A stretch of DNA of 64,000 nucleotides from Thermoanaerobaculia bacterium (GTDB taxonomy: Bacteria > Acidobacteriota > Thermoanaerobaculia > Gp7-AA8): the NCBI GenBank assembly GCA_963715895.1, contig OY970284.1, positions 4,771,892 through 4,835,891 on the forward strand. Direction: 5' to 3'. The position numbers were made by a program, and so were the translations under genes. The number at the start of each line of letters is the position of its first letter. The first letter of the stretch is position 1. The notes under the pieces were generated by a model, which worked only from the letters and a program-made list of their open reading frames with translations, did not search any database and was not told where the DNA came from. Positions 40,200 to 51,420 of the stretch are shown piece after piece.

Positions 40200-42431
40200 A
40201 TGAGTTTCGTCATCCAGCGCGCTTCGGGGCGCGGGCTGGCGCTGACGCAGGTGCGGCGCGATCTGCTCCGCATCGGGCGGGGGACGAATGCCGAGCTGCG
40301 CTCGGAGAATCCTGCCGTGGCCCTCGAGCATGCCGTCATCGAAGGCGACGCCAACGGCTTCACCGTCACCGACAAAGGGAGCATCACCGGCACGTACGTC
40401 AATCGCCGGCCGGTGGAGACGGCGCGGCTGGCCAGGGGCGACGTCATCGAGATCGGCGACCTGCGCATCGAGGTACAGGTTCTCGAGCCGGGCAAGCCGC
40501 TCTTCGTCCGCGTCAGCACGACGTCATCCGTGGCGGGGGTATTCGCCGGCGATGACGAGGAGATCGTCCAGGGCGCGGGAGCCCGCGGCGGCGCGGTCAA
40601 GGCGCGGAAGATCGACTACGCCGACGCCTTTCGTCTCAAGCGCGCCTGGCTGACCAAGCTCTCGCTCATCGCCATCCTTCTGATCGTCGCGTTCCTTGTT
40701 GTGGCCGAGGTCACCAAACCGGAGAAACAGAACGCGTTCATGCCGGGAGGGATCTCGTCGGCGCACGCGCGGGCGAAAGATCCCAGAACCGGCGAGTTGA
40801 TCGGCAACAACTGCCGCGCATGTCACAACCCGTGGCGCGGCGTTTCCGACACGAGCTGCACCGAATGTCACGGCAGACTGCCGCATGCGGAGAACCAGAT
40901 CGGCGCTCCGGCATGCGCCGACTGCCACTCCGAGCATCGCGGCTTCGCCAAACTGGCCGCGGCCGCGGACGCCACCTGCATCTCCTGCCACGGCGACATC
41001 GCCGCTCATGTCAAGGATCCGGCCGCCCTGGCGACGAAACCGAAAGAGATCCTCCACATCCTCTCCTTCGGCGGCCAACATCCCGACTTCACGCCGCGGA
41101 GCGATCCCGACACCCTTCTCTTCAACCACGCCCTCCACCTCAAGGCGGGTGGCGTGTTCAACGGAGAAGGACGCCGCGAAGAACTTCAGTGCACGCAATG
41201 CCACAAGCTCGTCGAGACGAAGGGGAAAGTCGATCCCGCTCCGATCAGCTTCAAGAGCCACTGCCAGCGCTGCCACAAACTGACGTTCGATCCGCGCTTC
41301 CCTAACGTCGAAGTGCCGCATGGAGGCGATCCCGCCGACGTCTACGGCTTCGTCCTGGCCACCTACGCCGGCAACCGCGACATCATCGGCAAGAGTCCGG
41401 AAGAGGTCCGGCGCATTCTGACGCTGCGGCCGCCGTCGACTCCCGACCAGGGAGCGGTGCTCAACGCCGAGCAGGTCGTCAAGGTCAAATGCAGCAAGTG
41501 CCACATCCTCCAGCGCTCCGGCACCCGTCTGGCCGCGAAGACGCCCGAGATCCCGGCGCGCTGGTTCCTGAAGGCGAAATTCACGCACACGCCGCACCGC
41601 ACCCTTTCGTGCGAGTCGTGTCACGAAAATGTCCGTCAGAGCACCAATACGTCAGACGTGCTGATGCCTGTGCGCAAAGATTGCACCGGATGCCACGGCG
41701 GGCAGTCGGCCAAAACATCCAGTAGCTGCGCGACCTGTCATGAGTATCATGAGCATTCGAAGGTCTTGTTGACGAAATTGGGGGCTTCCTCCGGGAAAGG
41801 AACGCCTCTTGCCCCGAAGGAACATGGAGGCGGATCCCGGATGATCGAGACGGTTCTTCTGTGGGCCATCGTCCTGTTACTGCTGGTGGTGCTCGTGCCG
41901 GCAGGGTTGGCGCTGGTCCAGCGTATCCGGGCCGGCGAGCTCGATCGCGCCGCGGGCGTGCGCGCCGCGGCCGCGCAGCAGGCGCCGACAGCGAAGATTC
42001 CGCCGCTGCAGGGTTCCGAGACGCCGTCGGCTCCGCCGCCCGCCGCGCCGGCGAAGGCGCCGGACATCACGAAGATGGCTCCCGTCCCCACCGCCCCGGC
42101 GGAAGGATCGACGGTGATGGTGCAGTGGTATGGCCTCCTGCAGTGCACCGGCGGCGCGCTGGAAGGACAGCGCTTCGTCATCGAAGAAGGCGGCCTCTAC
42201 ATCGGCCGCGATCCGGCCATGTCGCAGGTGGCCATCTCGGACAAACGCATCTCCAAACGGCACGTGCGGATCATTCCGCGTGATGGTAAGGTAATGGCCA
42301 TCGATCAGAACTCGACGAACGGTACGTTCCTCGGCAAGGCCGGCGGCGAGCGGATCACCGAGGTACAGCTCAAACGGGGAGACGTTCTCGTCCTGGCCGA
42401 CAACGCGGCCACGTTTGTGTACCAGATATAG
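40200..42431 (+). CDS. FHA - TM - decahaem c-type cytochrome - TM - FHA protein
   Basis: 743 aa. N-terminal FHA (LLRIGRGTNAELRS...GSITGTYVN...GDVIEIGDLRI), TM1 (LSLIAILLIVAFLVVAEV), ten CxxCH motifs (CRACH, CTECH, CADCH, CISCH, CTQCH, CQRCH, CSKCH, CESCH, CTGCH, CATCH), TM2 (VLLWAIVLLLLVVLVPAGLALV), Pro/Ala linker, C-terminal FHA (LYIGRDPAMSQVAISDKRISKRHVRI...STNGTFL...GDVLVLAD). Confidence 0.85.
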   Translation: MSFVIQRASGRGLALTQVRRDLLRIGRGTNAELRSENPAVALEHAVIEGDANGFTVTDKGSITGTYVNRRPVETARLARGDVIEIGDLRIEVQVLEPGKPLFVRVSTTSSVAGVFAGDDEEIVQGAGARGGAVKARKIDYADAFRLKRAWLTKLSLIAILLIVAFLVVAEVTKPEKQNAFMPGGISSAHARAKDPRTGELIGNNCRACHNPWRGVSDTSCTECHGRLPHAENQIGAPACADCHSEHRGFAKLAAAADATCISCHGDIAAHVKDPAALATKPKEILHILSFGGQHPDFTPRSDPDTLLFNHALHLKAGGVFNGEGRREELQCTQCHKLVETKGKVDPAPISFKSHCQRCHKLTFDPRFPNVEVPHGGDPADVYGFVLATYAGNRDIIGKSPEEVRRILTLRPPSTPDQGAVLNAEQVVKVKCSKCHILQRSGTRLAAKTPEIPARWFLKAKFTHTPHRTLSCESCHENVRQSTNTSDVLMPVRKDCTGCHGGQSAKTSSSCATCHEYHEHSKVLLTKLGASSGKGTPLAPKEHGGGSRMIETVLLWAIVLLLLVVLVPAGLALVQRIRAGELDRAAGVRAAAAQQAPTAKIPPLQGSETPSAPPPAAPAKAPDITKMAPVPTAPAEGSTVMVQWYGLLQCTGGALEGQRFVIEEGGLYIGRDPAMSQVAISDKRISKRHVRIIPRDGKVMAIDQNSTNGTFLGKAGGERITEVQLKRGDVLVLADNAATFVYQI

Positions 42432-42454: not shown

Positions 42455-44278
42455 ATGCGCTCCGGTGTCACGTCGATCCTCATGATTCTCGTCGCCACGG
42501 CCTGCCTGGCGCAGGGCCGCACGATCGGACGGCGCGACAGGGCGTTGGCGACCACTCCCGATCCCCCTTCGTGCGCCATCCCTCTGAACGCGGCCCTTCC
42601 CGACGTCTGCACCGACGGCGCGATCGGCCTCGGGACGCCGGAGCCATTCAGCGCCATTTCGAAAGCCGAGGCGATTGAGATCGTCAAGGCGGCGGCGACG
42701 GCGCTTGCCGGCGACACCGCCACCATCGCCATCGTCGACCGTACCGGCCGTCCGGTGGCGTTGTTCCGGCAAGCCAACGCCAACCCTGCCAACGATGACG
42801 TCGCCCTCGGCGTGGCCCGCACCGCCGCCTTCTTCAGCAACAGCCAGGCGCCGCTTTCCTCGCGCACGGTGCGCACCATTTCTCAAGTGCACTTCCCACC
42901 AGGCGTGGTCAACACGCCGGTCGGCGCTCTGTACGGGATCGAACAGTCGAACCGCGGATGCGATGTAAACGTGCTGTGGAACACGAATCAGTGCGTTCCG
43001 CGAGCGAAGTCGATCGGACAGTTCGCCGCCTTCACCGGCGCGCCGAAGCCCTGCCCGATCACTGATCGCTCCGGCTGCGGCCCCGGTCTCATCACCGGGA
43101 AAATCCTGCCGGACGATGCGCCGTATCCGCAGGAAGTCGATACCCGTCCCGTCAACGCCGGCGGCATCCCGCTCTACCGCGTTCTCGACACCAGTGCCGT
43201 CAAGCAGGGGATCGCCCGCACCGGAAAGCTGCTCGGCGCGATCGGCGTCACCGGCATCCCCGGCGATCCACAGCTCGCCGAATTCGCCGCCGTTACCGGC
43301 GCCTTTGGTCCGCTCAACGCCGGCGTGGCGCCGATCATCCCGCTGCCGAACTATCCGCTGCCGCAGCCGCAGAACGTCTTCATCGACGGAATCCGCCTGC
43401 CGTTCATCGGGCCGGATCAACAGCTGAAGTTCAATGCAGACGGACTGCCGATCGGTCTCCAGCAACTGCCCGGCACCTCGCCAGGTTCAGCCGCGGGATT
43501 TACCGCGGGCACCTTCGTCTACGGACCCTTTAACGGCGGCTGCCCGCCGAACGGCTATCTCGTCGGTCCCAACGCCAGCGTGCTGCCGGGCGGGCTGACG
43601 GCATCGGCGGTCGACGCCATCGTGCAGCGCGCCGTCGCGGCGGCCAGGCGCACCCGCGCTCAGGTGCGCCTCCCACTCAACAGCTACACCCGCATGATCA
43701 TCTCCGTAGCCGACACCGACGGAACGATCCTGGCGCACTACCGGATGCCCGACTCCCTCTTCGACGCCGTCGACGTCGTCCTGGCGAAAGCGCGCAACGT
43801 CGCCTACGTCAACGGCAGCGATCCGAACGTCCGCAACGATCTTCCCGGCATTCCCGCCGGCTATTGGGTAACCGGGCGCACGATCGGTTTCGGTGCGCAG
43901 CCGCTCTATCCGCCGGGCATCGATTCGCAGGCATTCGATGTCGGTCCCGGGCCGTGGTACTCCACTCTCTTTCTGCCAAACATCGCCAAGCCGTGCAGCC
44001 AGGGATCGCAGGCGCCGAACGCCAACCAGAACGGCGTCACATTCTTCGGCGGATCCACGCCGCTCGTCGACAACGGCAAACTCGTCGGTGGTCTCGGCGT
44101 CAGCGGCGACGGTATCGAGCAGGACGACTATGTCACCTACCTCGGCGCGGGCCCTCTCCTTCCGCCGACCGACAAATGGGCCGATCAGCTCAATGTCAAC
44201 GGCGCCCGTCTGCCGATGTTCAAGTTCCCCCGGAGCCCCGAAGGAGTCACGGAGTGCGGGGGGAAGCCGTGTTCGTAG
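42455..44278 (+). CDS. Secreted tandem GlcG/HbpS-like (DUF336) haem-binding protein
   Basis: Signal peptide; two DUF336-like modules (SKAEAIEIVKAAATALAGDTATIAIVDRTGRPVALFRQ... and SAVDAIVQRAVAAARRTRAQ...MIISVADTDGTILAHY...GGSTPLVDNGKLVGGLGVSGDGIEQDD). Confidence 0.7.
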   Translation: MRSGVTSILMILVATACLAQGRTIGRRDRALATTPDPPSCAIPLNAALPDVCTDGAIGLGTPEPFSAISKAEAIEIVKAAATALAGDTATIAIVDRTGRPVALFRQANANPANDDVALGVARTAAFFSNSQAPLSSRTVRTISQVHFPPGVVNTPVGALYGIEQSNRGCDVNVLWNTNQCVPRAKSIGQFAAFTGAPKPCPITDRSGCGPGLITGKILPDDAPYPQEVDTRPVNAGGIPLYRVLDTSAVKQGIARTGKLLGAIGVTGIPGDPQLAEFAAVTGAFGPLNAGVAPIIPLPNYPLPQPQNVFIDGIRLPFIGPDQQLKFNADGLPIGLQQLPGTSPGSAAGFTAGTFVYGPFNGGCPPNGYLVGPNASVLPGGLTASAVDAIVQRAVAAARRTRAQVRLPLNSYTRMIISVADTDGTILAHYRMPDSLFDAVDVVLAKARNVAYVNGSDPNVRNDLPGIPAGYWVTGRTIGFGAQPLYPPGIDSQAFDVGPGPWYSTLFLPNIAKPCSQGSQAPNANQNGVTFFGGSTPLVDNGKLVGGLGVSGDGIEQDDYVTYLGAGPLLPPTDKWADQLNVNGARLPMFKFPRSPEGVTECGGKPCS

Positions 44279-44290
44279 GGCGTAACGCAA

Positions 44291-44466
44291 CGCTACGTAG
44301 GTCGGACTCACGTAGGTCGGACTCACGTAGGTCGGACTCACGTAGGTCGGACTCTCTAGTCCGACCGGCGCTTGGGAGATCGGTAATTGATAACCCGCCT
44401 GTAGTTCAGAGCCGCGCAAGAACCGGTCGGACTAGAGAGTCCGACCTACGTGAGTCCGACCTACGT
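44291..44466. repeat. Composite tandem + inverted repeat element (MITE-like)
   Basis: Four tandem copies of ACGTAGGTCGGACTC (44295-44354), palindrome GGTCGGACTCTCTAGTCCGACC, about 57-bp spacer, second palindrome GGTCGGACTAGAGAGTCCGACC and two inverted copies GAGTCCGACCTACGT ending at the OMP start codon. Confidence 0.75.
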
Positions 44467-46454
44467 TTGGCTTCGCTCGTCTTTCTCATCCTCCTGTTCG
44501 CAACCTCGGCATTCGCGCAACCCGCAACCGCGCCCATCACCATCAACGACGACCAGCCCGTTTACGCCGAGGGTGTGCCGTTCCTGCTCACGGGAACATC
44601 GCTGCCCGGCGCTATCGTCACCATCGCCATCGAGAAATCGGGCAACGGCCAGACCACAGCCGATGCTTCGGGATATTGGACATTGATCTGGACACCGCCG
44701 GTAAAAACCGGCACGTGGACCATCACCGCCAGCTCGGGGGGCGTGACGGCGACGCAGCTTCTGCGCGTACAGATTCAGGGCAACGTACAGCGGCAGCCGA
44801 TCGTCGAGCCGGTCGTGCGCTACGGGACGCCGGAGATTCCGCATCCCGAGGCGTATCAGGAGATGACGGATCGGTGGCGCATCACGCCGCCGCCGTACGA
44901 GCTGACCGAGAAATCGAAAGGCCGCCCCATCGGCGACAAAGGCGCCTCGATCGATCCGTACAACCAGAACCTGATCAAAGGCGACCTGCCGATCTTCGGG
45001 AAGGACTGGTTCCTCGACTTCACCGGCATCAGCGACACCCTCGCCGAGTCGCGCACGCTGCCGACGCCGTCGGGCGTCAGCGCCGTCAAGCCGACCTCGA
45101 TCACCGTCTTCGGCAAAGACAACCAGAACCTCTTCAACGAGAACCTGATCGCCTCCTTCGACCTCTTCCAGGGCGACACCGCCTTCAAGCCCATCACGCA
45201 GCGCTTCAAGATCACGCTGATCGAAAACATCAACTACGTACACCTGCGCGAGAACGCTCTCGTCAAGCCTGACGTCCGCCGCGGAACGTCGCGCACCGAT
45301 GGGTATCTCTCGCTGCAGGAGATCTTCTACGAGCGAAAGATCCGCGATGTCTCGCCGAACTACGACTTCATGTCATTCCGCGTCGGATCGCAGCCCTTCA
45401 ACAGCGACTTCCGCGGGTTCATCTTCAACGACACGAACCTTGGCGCCCGCCTTTTCGGCAACTTCGCGTCCAATCGCTATCAATACAACGTCGCCGTGTT
45501 CGACCGGCTGGAAAAAGACACCAACTCCGGCCTCAACACAATGGAGCTCCGCGATCAGCAGGTCGGCATCGCCAATATCTACCTGCAGGACTTCCTCGTC
45601 CGCGGCTACACCCAGGAGTTCAGCGTCCACTATCTACGCGACGGCGCCACCTTTCACTACGACCGCAACGGCATCCTGGTGCGCCCTGCGCCGGTTGGGG
45701 TCTTCACGCCGCACGAGATCCGCGCCACGTACATCGGCGAGGCGGGCCTGGGACACATCGGCCGCTTCAACGTCGACCACGCCATCTACTACGTCTTCGG
45801 CACCGACGAGTTGAATCCGATCGCCGGCCCCGATCCGAATCTAAAGAACGGGAACGCCGTGAAGATCGGAGCCGGCAGCGCGGCCCTCGAGGTCTCCTAC
45901 GACCACGATTGGTATCGGCCGCGGCTGGCCCTTTTCTACGCCTCGGGCGACCGCAATCCGCGCGACCGCAACGCCCGCGGCTTCGACTCCATCTTCGACA
46001 GTCCTAATTTCGCCGGCGGCGGTTTCTCTTCTTCAACCGCCTCGGCATCCGCCTTCCGACGACCGGCGTCGCGCTCGTCGAGCGCGGCTCGCTCCTGACC
46101 AGCCTGCGCAGCTCGAAGGATGAAGGGCAGCCGAACTACGTCAATCCCGGCGTGCAGATCGCCAGCACGGGAATCGATGTCAACGTCACGCCGCGGCTGA
46201 CGGCAATCTTCACCGGCAACTACATCCGCTTCGACGCCGTCGAGTCGGTCGAGGCCATCCTCTTCCAGGGCAACATCCACAAGACGCTCGGCACCGATCT
46301 CTCCGCCGGCCTTCGCTACCGGCCGCTCCTCAACCAGAACATCGTCATCGTCGGCGGCACCGCCGTCCTCCTCCCCGGCCGAGGATTCAAAGACATCTAT
46401 GAAAAAGACCGGCCGCTCTACCACGTCTTCACGAACGTAATCCTGACCTTCTGA
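44467..46454 (+). pseudogene. Outer-membrane beta-barrel (porin-like) protein, interrupted by a -1 frameshift at about 46021-46025
   Basis: TTG start; signal peptide (ASLVFLILLFATSAFAQP); alternating-hydrophobic beta-strand composition; C-terminus ...HVFTNVILTF ends in Phe (OMP sorting signature). The reading frame switches at GGCGGCGGTTTCTC (3-T run): frame 1 ends at 46098, frame 0 continues as FLFFNRLGIRLP... to 46454. This may be a sequencing error rather than a true pseudogene. Confidence 0.6.
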
Positions 46455-49400
46455 TGAAACGGATAACGATCGCTCTCGCCGCAGTGCTCATCGTCACGCT
46501 GGCCGTGATCAGAATCCGCGCGCAGACATCCCCCGACCTCCCGCCGCTGATGCGCCAGACACAGGCCGAGGCCGATGCGAAGAGTGCCGGATGCCTCTCG
46601 TGTCATAACGGGATCGAACCGATGCACGCCTCGGCGGCGGTGAAGCTGGCCTGCACCGACTGCCACGGCGGCGACGGTTCGGCGCGGACGAAAGAGGCCG
46701 CGCATGTCAAGCCGCTCCATCCCGAGATCTGGAAGACCTCGGCCAATCCGCAGCGCAGCTACACCGCCCTTCTGAAAGAGACGCCGGAGTTCGTGAAGTT
46801 CGTCAATCCAGGCGACCTTCGCGTCTCGCAGGAGACCTGCGGCGGCTGCCATCAGCGCCAGGTCAACGCTGTACCGCGCAGCACCATGACGACGTCCGCC
46901 GTCTTCTGGGCCGCCGTCAGCTACGCCAACGGTCTCGTCAGCCGCAAGCAGGGACTCCTCGGCGAGAGCTACAACCGCGCCGGCAACGCCACGTCCATCA
47001 AACCGGCAACGCCGCCGACACCCGATCAGATCGCCAAAGGCGCGCTGCCGATCCTCGTCCCACTGCCGCGCTGGGAGGTCTTTCAGCCGGCCGAGTACTT
47101 CCGCGCTTTCGAGCGAGGCGGCATCTCGGGAAGCAGCTCCTTCCCGGATATCGGCAATCCCAGCCCCGAGGGGGAAGCGGGTAAGCCTGACATCCGCCTC
47201 GGCAACCGCGGACGCGGTACCGGCCTGCGCATCTCGCCCGCGCTCATCAATCTCAACAAGACGCGGCTCAACGATCCCCATCTCTCGTTCCTCGGCACGA
47301 ACGATCATCCAGGCGACTACCGCTCCTCCGGATGCACGGGATGCCACGTCGTCTACGCCAACGATCGCGATCCATTGCATTCCTCTAGCTACGCTCAGTA
47401 CGGCAACACCGGCCTCTCCATCACCGGCGACAAATCGATCCCGAAGAATGAGCAGGGACACCCGCTACGCCACCAGTTCACGCGCGCCGTACCAACGAGC
47501 CAGTGCATGACGTGTCACATGCATCAGCCGAACTCCTTCGTGAACACGTATCTCGGCTACACGATGTGGGACTACGAGTCAGACGCCGAGCTGCTCTGGC
47601 CGAAGAAACAGAAGTATCCGACCGAGGCCGAGAAGCGCGCCTCGCTCGACGCAAATCCAGAAGGCGCTGCGCCGAGGGGATTGTGGAGCGATGAGAAGTT
47701 CCTCGAAAACGTCTCCGGCCTCAATTCGCAGGCGAAGAACACCCAGTTCGCCGACTACCACGGGCACGGCTGGAACTTCATGGCCGTCTACAAACGCGAC
47801 CACAAAGGCAACCTGCTCGACGCCGACGGCAGAATCGTTTCGTTCGATGATCCCGCCAAGTTCAGCAAAGCCGTTCATCTGCAGGACATCCACCTCGAGA
47901 AAGGGATGCACTGCGCCGACTGCCACTTCTCGCAGGACGAGCACGGCAACGGCCAGATCTACGCCGAGTACGGCAACAACATCGAGATCGAATGCCAGGA
48001 CTGCCACGGCAACGTCGACGCCTACACCAACCTGCGCACCTCCGGCCCCGCCGCGCCGCCGGGAGGGACCGATCTTCGGCTCGGAACCACACCGTTCGGT
48101 CAACGCCGCTTCATCTGGGTCAACGGCAGGCTGTATCAGAGGTCGATGCTGAACCCCGGCATGCAGTGGGAAGTCATCCAGGTCAAAGACAGCATCACGC
48201 CCGGTAACGCGCATTACAACGAGCGCTCCGCGTATGCGAAGACGATCCAGCGCGACGGTACGACCTGGGGAACGTCATCCAGCGCGAATTTCGCCCACGC
48301 CGACGCCAGGATGACTTGCTATGCGTGCCACACCTCGTGGATGACCTCATGCTCCGGCTGCCATCTGCCGCAGGAGCAGAACGCCAAGACCGAGGTCCAT
48401 CACTACGAGGGGGGCGAGACGAGAAACTACGCCTCGTACAACCCCCAGGTCATCCGCACCGACGTCTTCATGCTTGGTGTCAACGGCACCACCAAAGGGC
48501 ATCGCCTAGCGCCCGTTCGGTCATCGTCCGCGCTCGTGATCAGCTCGACGAACGCATTGCGCGACCGCATCTACATCCAGCAGCCACCCATCTCCTCGCC
48601 CGGATATTCGAGCCAGGCCTTCAACGCCCACGTCCCGCACACCGTCCGCACCCGCGAAACGCAGGGGTGCGGAAGCTGCCACATCACCAAAGAGAACGAC
48701 AACAACGCCTGGCTCGCCCAGCTCCTGCTGCAAGGAACCAACTTCGTCAACTTCGTCGGCCGCTACGCCTACGTCGCGGAAGGAAAGGGCGGGTTCGAGG
48801 GCGTCTGCGTAACCGAGTGGGACGAGCCGCAGGCGGTCATCGGATCGTCGCTGCACAAGATCGTCTATCCCGACTACTACGCGAAGCACCAGGCCAACAA
48901 GCTGGAGCTGCAGACCGCGCACGAACATCACGGCGACTCGCGCTCACTGCAGATGCGCGGTGAGTTCATCTACAGCGCGAACGGCGAGGAAGGCTTCAGC
49001 GTCTACGACATCGCCAACATCGACAACAAAGACTTCTCCGAGCGCATCGTCTCCCAGCCGGTCTCCCCGCTAGGCCAGCGTACCTTCGTGAAGACGAAGT
49101 TCGCCTCGGCCGTGGCGCTGCCGACGACGATGCCGGTGGCCCCCACGCGCCAGACGCAGTTCATCAAGGAAAACGAAGAGCAGACGATTCACCCGCTGTA
49201 CAAATACGTCTACGTCGCCGACCGCGAAGAGGGGCTGATCCTCATCGACGTGACGACGCTGTCAGACGCCAATCCGTCGAACAACTTCCTCACGCGCGCC
49301 GTGACCTTCAATCCCGGCGGCGCGCTCAACGGTGCCCGATCGATCTACGTCGCCGGACGCTGGGTCTTCATCGGCGCAGCGGGTGGCTTGGTCATCGTCG

Positions 49401-50065
49401 ACGTCGACAAACCGCTCGAGCCGAGGATTGTCGCCACGATTCCTGAATTGAAGGATGCCACCGGCATCGGCGTGCAGTTCCGCTATGCCTTTGTCACCAC
49501 GCCGGAAGGATTGGCCAGCGTCGACATCACCGACCCGTCGCATCCGCGCGTGGCCGCGCGCCTGGCCGTTCCCGACGCCAGAAGCGTCTATGTCGCTCGC
49601 ACCTACGCCTACATCGGCGGAGGCGCCCGCGGGATGGTCATCGTCGACGTCGAGCACCCGGAGAAGCCGGCAATCCTCCCGTGGAGCGACGAGCTCCCGC
49701 ATGACGCCAACGACGTGAAAGTGGCCTCGACCAACGCATCGACCTTCGCGTACGTCGCCGACGGCAAGTACGGTCTCAAGGTCTACCAGTTCCTCTCCCC
49801 CGAATGGACGCCCGGATACGCCGGCTTCAGCCCGCGTCCCGAACCGCGCCTCGTCGCCACCCGCCGCACGCACGGCCCGGCGCTGGCGGTCTCGAAGGGC
49901 CTCGACCGCGACCGCGCCGTCGACGAAGGCGGCAATCAGGTTTCGATCTTCAACCGCATCGGCGCGCGCCCGATGACGCTCCCCGAGATGCAGCGGCTCT
50001 ACCTCCGCGACGGATCGCTCTACACCGTCAGCGAGACGCCGACTACGAAGCCGGTCACGAGGTGA
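46454..50065 (+). CDS. Secreted multihaem (about 10 CxxCH) c-type cytochrome fused to C-terminal LVIVD-repeat beta-propeller
   Basis: ATG overlaps OMP stop (ATGA); signal peptide. CxxCH motifs: CLSCH, CTDCH, CGGCH, CTGCH, CMTCH, CADCH, CQDCH, CYACH, CSGCH, CGSCH. C-terminal about 350 aa contain LVIVD-type repeats (LILIDVT, LVIVDVD, MVIVDVE, YAYIGGG). Confidence 0.85.
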   Translation: MKRITIALAAVLIVTLAVIRIRAQTSPDLPPLMRQTQAEADAKSAGCLSCHNGIEPMHASAAVKLACTDCHGGDGSARTKEAAHVKPLHPEIWKTSANPQRSYTALLKETPEFVKFVNPGDLRVSQETCGGCHQRQVNAVPRSTMTTSAVFWAAVSYANGLVSRKQGLLGESYNRAGNATSIKPATPPTPDQIAKGALPILVPLPRWEVFQPAEYFRAFERGGISGSSSFPDIGNPSPEGEAGKPDIRLGNRGRGTGLRISPALINLNKTRLNDPHLSFLGTNDHPGDYRSSGCTGCHVVYANDRDPLHSSSYAQYGNTGLSITGDKSIPKNEQGHPLRHQFTRAVPTSQCMTCHMHQPNSFVNTYLGYTMWDYESDAELLWPKKQKYPTEAEKRASLDANPEGAAPRGLWSDEKFLENVSGLNSQAKNTQFADYHGHGWNFMAVYKRDHKGNLLDADGRIVSFDDPAKFSKAVHLQDIHLEKGMHCADCHFSQDEHGNGQIYAEYGNNIEIECQDCHGNVDAYTNLRTSGPAAPPGGTDLRLGTTPFGQRRFIWVNGRLYQRSMLNPGMQWEVIQVKDSITPGNAHYNERSAYAKTIQRDGTTWGTSSSANFAHADARMTCYACHTSWMTSCSGCHLPQEQNAKTEVHHYEGGETRNYASYNPQVIRTDVFMLGVNGTTKGHRLAPVRSSSALVISSTNALRDRIYIQQPPISSPGYSSQAFNAHVPHTVRTRETQGCGSCHITKENDNNAWLAQLLLQGTNFVNFVGRYAYVAEGKGGFEGVCVTEWDEPQAVIGSSLHKIVYPDYYAKHQANKLELQTAHEHHGDSRSLQMRGEFIYSANGEEGFSVYDIANIDNKDFSERIVSQPVSPLGQRTFVKTKFASAVALPTTMPVAPTRQTQFIKENEEQTIHPLYKYVYVADREEGLILIDVTTLSDANPSNNFLTRAVTFNPGGALNGARSIYVAGRWVFIGAAGGLVIVDVDKPLEPRIVATIPELKDATGIGVQFRYAFVTTPEGLASVDITDPSHPRVAARLAVPDARSVYVARTYAYIGGGARGMVIVDVEHPEKPAILPWSDELPHDANDVKVASTNASTFAYVADGKYGLKVYQFLSPEWTPGYAGFSPRPEPRLVATRRTHGPALAVSKGLDRDRAVDEGGNQVSIFNRIGARPMTLPEMQRLYLRDGSLYTVSETPTTKPVTR

Positions 50066-51420
50066 TGACGATGAAGCGAATGAAACGAATGATGATTCTC
50101 TTCGTGCTGATGACCGCGGCCGCTGCGATCGCGCAGCAACCGAGCAACCCGGCAACCCAGCAACCTCAAACCCCAGCCCCGATGCAACCACCGTCTGTTC
50201 CCAACCACTACGACGGCGTCGCCTCCTGCGCCAACTCCGGCTGCCACGGCTCGACCCAGCCGCTCAACGCCGCGCACGTCCTGCAGAACGAGTACTACAC
50301 GTGGCTGAGCAAAGATCGCCACGCGCAGGCCTACAACGTCCTCTTCAGCGACCGCTCGGCGCGCGTCGCGCGCAACATGCGCCTCAAAGGAAAGGCTTAT
50401 CAGGAGACCGTCTGCCTCGATTGTCACACTACGAACGTCCCCGCGCGCCTGGTCTCCGGCAAAATGGACGTCGAAGACGGCGTCCAGTGCGAAGCCTGCC
50501 ATGGCCCCGCCAGCGGCTGGCGCGCCGAGCACACGCAGGCCGGCTGGACGCACGAGCAGTCGGTGGCGCGCGGGATGACCGACCTCCGAAACCTCCCCGT
50601 CCGTGCCTCGGGCTGCCTCTCCTGTCACCTCGGCAACGACAAGAAGGAAGTCGATCACGAGCTGATCGCCTCCGGCCATCCCATCCTCGCCTTCGAGCTC
50701 GACAACTACACCGAGACGATGCCGCCCCACTGGCGCCGAGACAAAGACGCCGTGGCCGCCGACACCCACGGCGCGCGTGCCTTCGCCGTCGGCCAGGCCG
50801 CCGCATTCAGCCAATCGCTCGACAATCTGGCCCGCCACGCCCGCGGCGATAAGTGGCCGGAGTTCTCCGACATGAGCTGCATCAACTGCCACCATTCGCT
50901 CGAGGGCAGCGGATGGCGTCAGGAGCGCGGCTGGCCCGGCCGGGCCGGCCTCCCTGCGTGGAGCCCGCAGCATTGGGCCGTCCTCCGTCTCCTGGTCGGG
51001 CGCGCCAATCCTTCCGCACGCGCGACGCTCGACAACGCCGTGGAGATCCTCGCCGTACGCGTCTCACGGATGAACGACTCCAACGGCGTTCTGCAGGCAG
51101 CCAACGAAGCCCGCCGCACCATCGACAGCGTCACGCCGCAGATCGCCGCCCTGAGCTGGCGCGATGACGATGTCCGCTCCATGATGCGCACTATCGCCGG
51201 CGACACCGACTTCCTCCTCAATTCCGACGTCCACTCCGCCGAGCAGACCGCGCTGGCGCTGCAGAGCCTTGCCTCCGCCCTCACCCGAAGCAACCCGCGC
51301 CTGCTCAAGAGCCCGATGACCGAAGCGATCGATGCTCTCTTCGAAGAGGTCAAGAGCCGCGAACGCTACGAACCGTCACGATTCGTGCAGAAGCTGGCGG
51401 CGGTGCGGGCGGCGTTGTAG
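50065..51420 (+). CDS. Secreted pentahaem c-type cytochrome (4x CxxCH + 1x CX4CH)
   Basis: ATG overlapping upstream stop (TGATGA); signal peptide (MKRMMILFVLMTAAAAIAQQ); haem motifs CANSGCH (CX4CH), CLDCH, CEACH, CLSCH, CINCH. Confidence 0.8.
   Translation: MTMKRMKRMMILFVLMTAAAAIAQQPSNPATQQPQTPAPMQPPSVPNHYDGVASCANSGCHGSTQPLNAAHVLQNEYYTWLSKDRHAQAYNVLFSDRSARVARNMRLKGKAYQETVCLDCHTTNVPARLVSGKMDVEDGVQCEACHGPASGWRAEHTQAGWTHEQSVARGMTDLRNLPVRASGCLSCHLGNDKKEVDHELIASGHPILAFELDNYTETMPPHWRRDKDAVAADTHGARAFAVGQAAAFSQSLDNLARHARGDKWPEFSDMSCINCHHSLEGSGWRQERGWPGRAGLPAWSPQHWAVLRLLVGRANPSARATLDNAVEILAVRVSRMNDSNGVLQAANEARRTIDSVTPQIAALSWRDDDVRSMMRTIAGDTDFLLNSDVHSAEQTALALQSLASALTRSNPRLLKSPMTEAIDALFEEVKSRERYEPSRFVQKLAAVRAAL

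Follow-up and report, generated by a model that had tools for sequence, protein, structure and literature searches.

One-base lesion and palindromic repeat element in an outer-membrane barrel gene of a Thermoanaerobaculia multihaem cytochrome operon

The window analysed here is a stretch of 64,000 nucleotides (nt) from a Thermoanaerobaculia bacterium (Acidobacteriota; GenBank assembly GCA_963715895.1, contig OY970284.1, positions 4,771,892 to 4,835,891 of the forward strand). On its plus strand it carries a gene for an outer-membrane beta-barrel protein, set in an operon of multihaem cytochrome genes and extending from the proposed start to the normal stop over 44254-46454. The frame of this gene is broken near its C-terminal quarter, and a palindromic repeat element stands at its front, which raises two questions: what does the broken frame mean, and where does the gene begin? 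An earlier note made from the sequence alone had placed the break in a run of three T's, had offered a sequencing error, a recent pseudogenisation or slipped-strand phase variation as its causes, and had taken a TTG at the end of the repeat as the only plausible start. We compared the locus with orthologous loci of relatives, which are referred to below by their L numbers. The break is an ordinary loss of one base rather than a genetic switch, and the start of the gene most likely lies upstream of the repeat, as judged from the comparison of reading frames. For the explanation as a whole, a young deletion allele together with an upstream start, our confidence stands at even chances.

The lesion site and its expected consequences

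The upstream frame of the barrel gene is open from far upstream to a TGA at 46096-46098, and the downstream frame, one base back, opens after a TAA at about 46005 and ends with ...TNVILTF and a stop at 46454. The switch between them near 46025 is real, being seen both in the open reading frames (ORFs) and in the alignment of homologues, and the gene is, as had been proposed, an outer-membrane barrel gene broken by the loss of one base. When one base is added near 46025, the repaired product has 662 residues counted from the TTG at 44467 and ends in ...VILTF, in agreement with the forecast of about 660 residues and a C-terminal Phe. A search of 5.8 billion proteins with this repaired protein returned 4168 homologues at E <=1e-5. 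The best 120 of them share 63-95% identity with it, are nearly all 640-720 amino acids (aa) long, and cover 94-100% of the repaired query. The homologues are thus colinear with the repaired protein, which means that both halves belong to one gene and that this gene does not end at 46098.

Across the junction the aligned homologues all read NFAGGGFSFFNRLGIRL. The closest relative, L001 (92% DNA identity), has the codons GGC TTC TCC TTC TTC AAC where the window has GGT TTC TC- TTC TTC AAC. All 41 orthologous loci examined (32 genome loci, 5 ENA loci and 4 JGI contigs) are in frame at the site with TTC TCN/AGY TTY, the general reading being GGY TTC TCN TTC TTC AAC and the serine codon being TCC in the closest relatives; the deletion is absent from 41 of 41, and so is a run of four T's. 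The pattern used to scan the JGI metagenomes, set in the window's own sequence context, accepted either allele; it matched 4 contigs, all intact and all at <=90% identity, and the deletion was not encountered a second time. In an alignment of 46 sequences, extending to about 40% identity, F520 and S521 never vary. On this comparison the missing base is the third (wobble) base of the invariant Ser521 codon, lost between 46028 and 46029. The T run at 46023-46025, where the earlier note had put the lesion, is intact in the window, and at 3 nt it is the longest run at the site. Restoring a T there would mis-repair the gene, giving GGGFLFF in spite of the invariance of F520 and S521, and the four-T run expected in orthologues was found by codon comparison in none of the 41 loci. 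The lesion context at 46024-46034 is TTCTCNTTCTTC in its intact form and TTCTCTTCTTC in its deletion form, and it lies in the pyrimidine tract TTCTCCTTCTTC.

The recorded allele can accordingly be divided into four parts. By ORF translation, the recorded reading frame (44254-46098) covers the pre-sequence, an Ig-like domain and most of the barrel. The lesion, with the Ser521 codon cut to TC, lies at 46027-46029, as codons compared in pairs and across many loci show. It is followed in the same frame by an out-of-frame tail of 23 codons (46030-46095) and the TGA at 46096-46098. The C-terminal 141 codons and the stop lie in the -1 frame at 46029-46454 and, as indicated by translation, homologue alignment and a structural model, hold a conserved loop, the last five beta-strands and the ...VILTF signal.

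Translation of the recorded allele would end at the TGA, and its truncated product would lack the C-terminal Phe signal together with the five final beta-strands and the conserved loop ahead of them. Such a barrel would be left open and, going by the established rules of outer-membrane assembly, would fail to assemble in the outer membrane. Termination would also fall 356 nt short of the ATG at which the downstream decahaem cytochrome gene begins. This ATG normally overlaps the barrel stop (TGATG at 46452-46456), and the premature stop would thus be expected to uncouple decahaem translation as well.

Null allele, consensus error and weaker alternatives

When the window was aligned against L001, L006 and L007 between 38075 and 52132, the barrel deletion was the only coding indel that is not a multiple of three. 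Twenty other genes of the window match Pfam domains almost completely or give no hint of being split. The absence of other broken frames suggests that the assembly is not generally indel-prone. Further frameshifts had been suspected at overlapping same-strand ORF pairs elsewhere in the window; these were checked and rejected. At sites where four relatives agree, the substitutions specific to the window lineage were counted: before the lesion 15 are synonymous and 3 non-synonymous, after it the numbers are 2 and 0, too few to show relaxed selection and in keeping with either a very young lesion or an artefact. Judged by these substitutions, selection on the barrel gene stayed purifying until very recently, and no decay has set in. 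The lesion, if not an artefact, is a non-programmed and evolutionarily very young 1-nt deletion.

We consider it an even bet that this deletion is a genuine null allele of the sequenced population. In this case it would resemble the young single-nucleotide-deletion pseudogenes of other bacteria, which likewise show one frame-breaking lesion against intact orthologues, intact neighbours and no secondary decay, but differ in that the lesion here is known from the consensus sequence only and that no relaxed selection is detectable. If the deletion is real, the strain has just lost the outer-membrane part of a putative extracellular electron-transfer module, and probably the efficient translation of the next gene with it, so that the locus would catch gene loss as it happens in an uncultured soil lineage.

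Several points weigh against a null allele. A consensus error is compatible with the sequence evidence. The lesion falls in an invariant motif of an otherwise intact and selected operon, and an artefact would look identical. For a null allele to be the majority form in nature, selection must be relaxed or a paralogue present, and no paralogue of the barrel gene was seen within the window. As a separate observation, L010 and L041 are two contigs of one metagenome-assembled genome (MAG), SMAG_U13202, and both have the barrel gene and, with it, the repeat element. Such a pair could reflect paralogy or a strain mixture, and could bear on whether a second copy buffers a null allele.

A sequencing or assembly consensus error, with the gene intact in the organism and one base dropped in the tract TTCTCCTTCTTC, is a serious contender, somewhat short of an even chance in our estimate. 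It would fit a gene that is otherwise perfect, with a low ratio of non-synonymous to synonymous substitution (dN/dS) on both sides of the lesion, with operon partners that are all intact, with a lost base in an invariant motif and with a deletion that recurs in 0 of 41 orthologous loci. Consensus indel errors concentrate in long homopolymers, however, and this site is not one; nor does the 14 kb of aligned operon hold another frame-breaking indel, and 20 other genes of the window look intact. An exact-sequence look-up of the two flanking proteins in the assembly collection gave no record, and the closest genome locus is 92% identical to the window in DNA. Sequence alone cannot separate a null allele from a consensus error. 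Should the deletion be an artefact, one base would have to be restored in the record to keep the gene from being annotated as a pseudogene.

All explanations besides these two share a small residue of probability; this apportioning follows from our own rough assumed rates of frameshift pseudogenes and of short- and long-read indel errors. Of the three causes proposed in the earlier note, sequencing error and recent pseudogenisation thus survive and slipped-strand phase variation, in which a reversible change in homopolymer length would toggle the porin, fails. Outer-membrane proteins are classic targets of phase variation, a point in its favour to which no tool result adds support. Known contingency tracts are ~7 nt or longer. 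Here no run at the site is longer than 3 nt and the lost base falls outside the T run, the 41 orthologous loci show no length variation at the site (none has four T's), and the only unstable repeats in the gene are 15-nt units that are unable to change the frame. With the contingency genes of Neisseria, Haemophilus and Campylobacter the locus shares an outer-membrane protein as target and inactivation by a 1-nt length change, but its lesion is in neither a homopolymer nor a short tandem tract and its relatives are free of length polymorphism. As a candidate phase-variable contingency locus it was therefore rejected, having no tract of at least ~7 nt and no tract-length differences among the 41 loci, and we regard phase variation as very improbable.

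Still less probable is a programmed -1 ribosomal frameshift or transcriptional slippage that restores the full-length protein. A -1 slip after the TCT at 46027-46029 would indeed give the ancestral F-S-F-F-N, but the sequence at 46021-46034 (GGT TTC TCT TCT TCA) offers neither an X XXY YYZ heptamer nor a long run of A or T. Known programmed frameshifts are conserved among orthologues, and the orthologues here are all encoded in one frame, none needing a shift. A natural end of the gene near 46098, with a small gene of its own at 46152-46454, can be dismissed as the least credible reading of all, having for it nothing more than two ORFs in a mechanical ORF list and against it homologues that are colinear through the junction to ...VILTF and a 100-aa ORF that has no signal peptide and matches the last four strands of the barrel.

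The palindromic repeat and the start of the gene

Repeat analysis and folding delimit a palindromic element at 44295-44466 on the plus strand. It has four perfect tandem 15-nt units ACGTAGGTCGGACTC at 44295-44354 and two inverted units at 44437-44466, and its inverted 50-nt arms (44325-44374 and 44417-44466) are 96% complementary around a 42-nt loop (44375-44416). The repeat 13-mer occurs 6 times against 0.07 expected by chance, and the fold energy is -126 kcal/mol (z = -12), with a z of -11.4 for the short form in L012. Units, arms and fold energy together bear out the claim that a repeat element at the front of the gene is real.

In frame, the element encodes RRSDS four times and, further on, ESDLR twice. 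The same element is found at the same site, with varied unit number or a shorter core, in L007, L009, L010, L012, L013, L022, L041 and L047, and as a remnant in L048. The units being 15 nt long, a change in their number cannot shift the frame. Other relatives have unrelated palindromes at the same place (z of -2.5 for the L001 type, -3.6 for L015 and -4.9 for L023), and those with the shortest spacing (L018, L019 and L024) have no palindrome at the site. The inserts L001:6026-6165, L015:2370-2517, L023:5928-6027 and L012:5895-5995 were observed to occupy the same few codons as window 44279-44466, in frame and stop-free. The codons that separate the overlapping start from the signal-peptide core look like a hot spot at which insertions are tolerated. 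L047:2830-3110 (JGI Ga0599163_0000298, protein P0002) has a second hairpin-forming insert nested inside the element; this nested insert brings an in-frame TGA, and the ATG directly after it is called as the start.

The gene start is most likely the GTG at 44254-44256, which was proposed from the comparison with relatives and overlaps the upstream gene by 25 nt. The TTG at 44467-44469, which abuts the 3' arm of the hairpin, is not the only plausible start, since a second in-frame GTG lies at 44269 and the position is occupied by TTC in 6 of the 9 other element-bearing relatives (L007, L009, L010, L012, L022 and L041), TTG being present only in the window, L047 and L048. Each of the 22 loci examined has an in-frame ATG or GTG within the last codons of the upstream gene. 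From this overlapping start to the mature N-terminus, these loci have 0 in-frame stops, compared with 47 and 34 in the other frames, and across the repeat of the window alone the counts are 0 in the used frame and 4 and 9 in the others. Measured from the upstream stop to the mature N-terminus, the spacing varies among 18 values between 59 and 281 nt, all of which are 2 mod 3 with the sole exception of the distant L025. In L018, L019 and L024 an ordinary signal peptide comes right after the overlapping start, in the L001-type relatives a different hydrophobic core does so, and in L008, L027, L017, L014, L022 and others no other start codon precedes the complete hydrophobic core. A stretch that is stop-free and conserved in frame in 22 loci argues that the palindrome is probably translated, inside the coding region and as part of the export signal. 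Initiation at GTG 44254, which overlaps the HbpS-like gene upstream, would have the palindrome read as a long Arg-rich stretch before the signal-peptide core. That core, ASLVFLILLFATSAFA, is placed at 44470-44517 by translation and homologue alignment, with cleavage expected after AFA and before the Q at 44518. A Shine-Dalgarno-like motif, GAAGGAG (44240-44246), can be read inside the upstream gene 7 nt before GTG 44254. The motif doubles as codons for a conserved Glu-Gly in the upstream protein and cannot serve as independent evidence.

Other observations count against the upstream start. A conserved Glu-Cys in the upstream protein dictates the codon at 44254, whose conservation alone proves nothing; the resulting 88-residue pre-sequence is unusually long; the in-frame stop followed by ATG in L047 means that downstream starts can be used; and the TTG of the window is at the right distance from the hydrophobic core. 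We nevertheless think it unlikely, if not negligibly so, that the repeat is a non-coding 5' leader and that the gene starts at TTG 44467. This codon lies 23 codons before the anchor at the mature N-terminus, is shared by L047 and L048, and would give a signal peptide of 17 residues, a normal length, and L047 shows a usable start downstream of the overlap. However, besides being TTC in most of the element-bearing relatives, it follows 50 nt locked in the hairpin that ends at 44466, no Shine-Dalgarno-like motif is seen before it, the signal peptide would be without a charged n-region, and in the 22 loci the reading frame stays open and in register through this region. The TTG could still serve as a secondary start. 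Start-codon callers disagree on this barrel family because of the palindromic inserts within the region coding for the signal peptide.

With translation through the palindrome as the probable reading, the closest known parallel is the in-frame palindromic insertions in genes of Rickettsia (reviewed in PMC10969869). The Rickettsia palindromic elements (RPEs) and miniature inverted-repeat transposable element (MITE)-like repeats described there share with the window element (~170 nt) a palindromic structure and an in-frame, stop-free position in a permissive part of a protein. The window element differs in being seen as one copy only in ~0.57 Mb of window and related loci, in having no visible target-site duplication and in lying in the n-region of a signal peptide. 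Clustered copies of the element were found only at the barrel locus in the 64-kb window and ~0.5 Mb of related loci (~0.57 Mb in all). A scan of viral contigs for the 21-nt hairpin gave no match, and an exhaustive phmmer search of 1.84 billion representatives found the element peptide in no other protein (one irrelevant repeat protein was returned). A word-index protein search with the repeat peptide gave no candidates, a method that is insensitive to short queries, and an Rfam scan of 43900-46600 returned only a sub-threshold look-alike of a microRNA hairpin.

A broader proposal, which we offer as tentative and rather doubtful, joins two parts: that translated palindromes have landed repeatedly at a porin hot spot, in the manner of RPEs and outside Rickettsia, and that the barrel and its decahaem partner form an AlgE-like electron conduit spread over several phyla. 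The landed types would be those of the window, L001, L015 and L023 ('SEAKDL'), and their hairpins might tune translational coupling or export.

The barrel family and its cytochrome operon

Pfam and NCBIfam models find in the window protein only a weak Ig-like domain (residues 25-104); it falls below threshold for the Pfam family Alginate_exp (PF13372), and a profile search of PDB sequences with it found no barrel protein. Weak matches to Alginate_exp are present in 9 of 46 relatives (best E 9.6e-4). An AlphaFold (AF2) model built from 46 diverse sequences has a predicted local distance difference test score (pLDDT) of 72.8 and was used instead of an earlier, poor model from 23 close sequences (pLDDT 54.7). 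It has a beta-sandwich at the N-terminus, then a disordered linker, then a barrel of ~18 long strands. The best PDB match in Foldseek is the 18-stranded alginate exporter AlgE (E 2e-16, target TM 0.67), followed by OprD/Occ porins, and the top 50 are all outer-membrane barrels or engineered derivatives. Residue 521 lies within a long, highly conserved and poorly modelled loop (493-562), after which come five strands and the C-terminal Phe. The signal peptide ends in ...LLFATSAFA, before QP, and the C-terminal ...TNVILTF is reachable only after repair of the frame.

On the strength of this model the protein is an AlgE-like outer-membrane barrel with a predicted ~18 strands. It shares the predicted fold, the signal peptide and the C-terminal Phe with the 18-stranded barrels of the AlgE/Alginate_exp (PF13372) and OprD/Occ types, but sequence identity to them is only 10-12%, and it adds the N-terminal Ig-like domain and the long invariant loop (493-562). 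Its gene context, unlike that of AlgE, is one of cytochromes and not of polysaccharide export. The family is very large, a profile search having scored at least 8000 candidates, all at E 1e-10 or better. The members listed (L026, L029-L037 and proteins P0121-P0240) are unnamed or called 'hypothetical protein' and have no Pfam domain on record. A barrel family of this size, lacking a Pfam model and regularly paired with a decahaem cytochrome, matters for annotation. The palindrome, probably translated, and this unnamed AlgE-like family matter more in this respect than the frameshift does; a decahaem protein flanked by FHA domains, described below, is a further side finding of modest interest.

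The barrel gene belongs to a five-gene, tightly packed multihaem-cytochrome operon whose gene order is identical in close relatives. Directly after the barrel gene, at 46454-50065 (+), Pfam and NCBIfam place a 1203-aa decahaem cytochrome with 10 CXXCH motifs and LVIVD beta-propeller repeats. A barrel followed by a 1000-1300-aa protein with nine or ten CXXCH motifs recurs in Thermoanaerobaculia, Nitrospirae, Verrucomicrobiota and Ignavibacteria, and the downstream decahaem neighbour is present in nearly all loci that extend far enough. We also observed a member of the barrel family in which a tetrahaem domain replaces the Ig-like domain at the N-terminus (L029:5356-7584, MAG MFD05674.bin.2.95), with CXXCH at residues 107, 126, 157 and 181 of the open frame beginning at L029:5260. 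It is a natural cytochrome-barrel fusion.

The conserved cytochrome neighbours and this fusion point to a functional link with cytochromes and make 'conduit porin', the term used in the earlier note, a reasonable hypothesis, drawn from gene context only. Neither Pfam nor NCBIfam gives the barrel an MtrB/PioB (PF11854) match, MtrB is not among the Foldseek top 50, and the model is AlgE-like. As far as its sequence tells, the barrel is not a member of the MtrB or OmbB families, OmbB itself not having been directly compared. The MtrAB/MtrCAB conduits and the Geobacter OmbB-OmaB-OmcB porin-cytochrome (Pcc) conduits (PMC4282303, PMC4245776) likewise have a barrel gene among multihaem cytochrome genes. 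In contrast to them, the partner cytochrome in the window is a 1200-aa protein with a beta-propeller, and electron transfer is putative here. The ~18 strands of the moderate-confidence model, with its poorly modelled loop 493-562, compare with 26 in MtrB and with 20-26 for a barrel that sheathes a cytochrome. A 'novel porin-MHC' (MHC, multihaem cytochrome) of Verrucomicrobia (PMC5615132) may or may not belong to the barrel family. We found nothing specific in the literature on this gene cluster in Thermoanaerobaculia, and a scan of 43900-46600 for promoters and terminators found none.

Upstream of the barrel gene, the first gene of the operon (40200-42431, +) encodes a 743-aa protein for which Pfam finds FHA domains at both ends and a cytochrome c7/c3 match. 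Hydrophobic, putatively transmembrane segments at about residues 150-170 and 545-570 enclose 10 CXXCH motifs, and the gene is syntenic in relatives, in which this unusual architecture is conserved. It looks like an inner-membrane decahaem cytochrome with a phospho-threonine-binding domain at each of its two cytoplasmic ends. Between this gene and the barrel gene lies the HbpS-like gene (42455-44278, +; PF03928, Pfam E 1.5e-23), which ends in a TAG at 44276-44278 and holds the same position in all close relatives. Two stretches of its 607-aa product match the haem-degrading or haem-sensing HbpS-like family.

Downstream of the decahaem gene, a tetrahaem cytochrome c554-like gene (50071-51420, +; Pfam PF13435) carries 4 CXXCH motifs. 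At its start (window 50071-50092) there is a 9-nt tandem duplication (AAGCGAATG / AAACGAATG), which adds Lys-Arg-Met to the signal peptide of the tetrahaem protein when compared with L001, L006 and L007.

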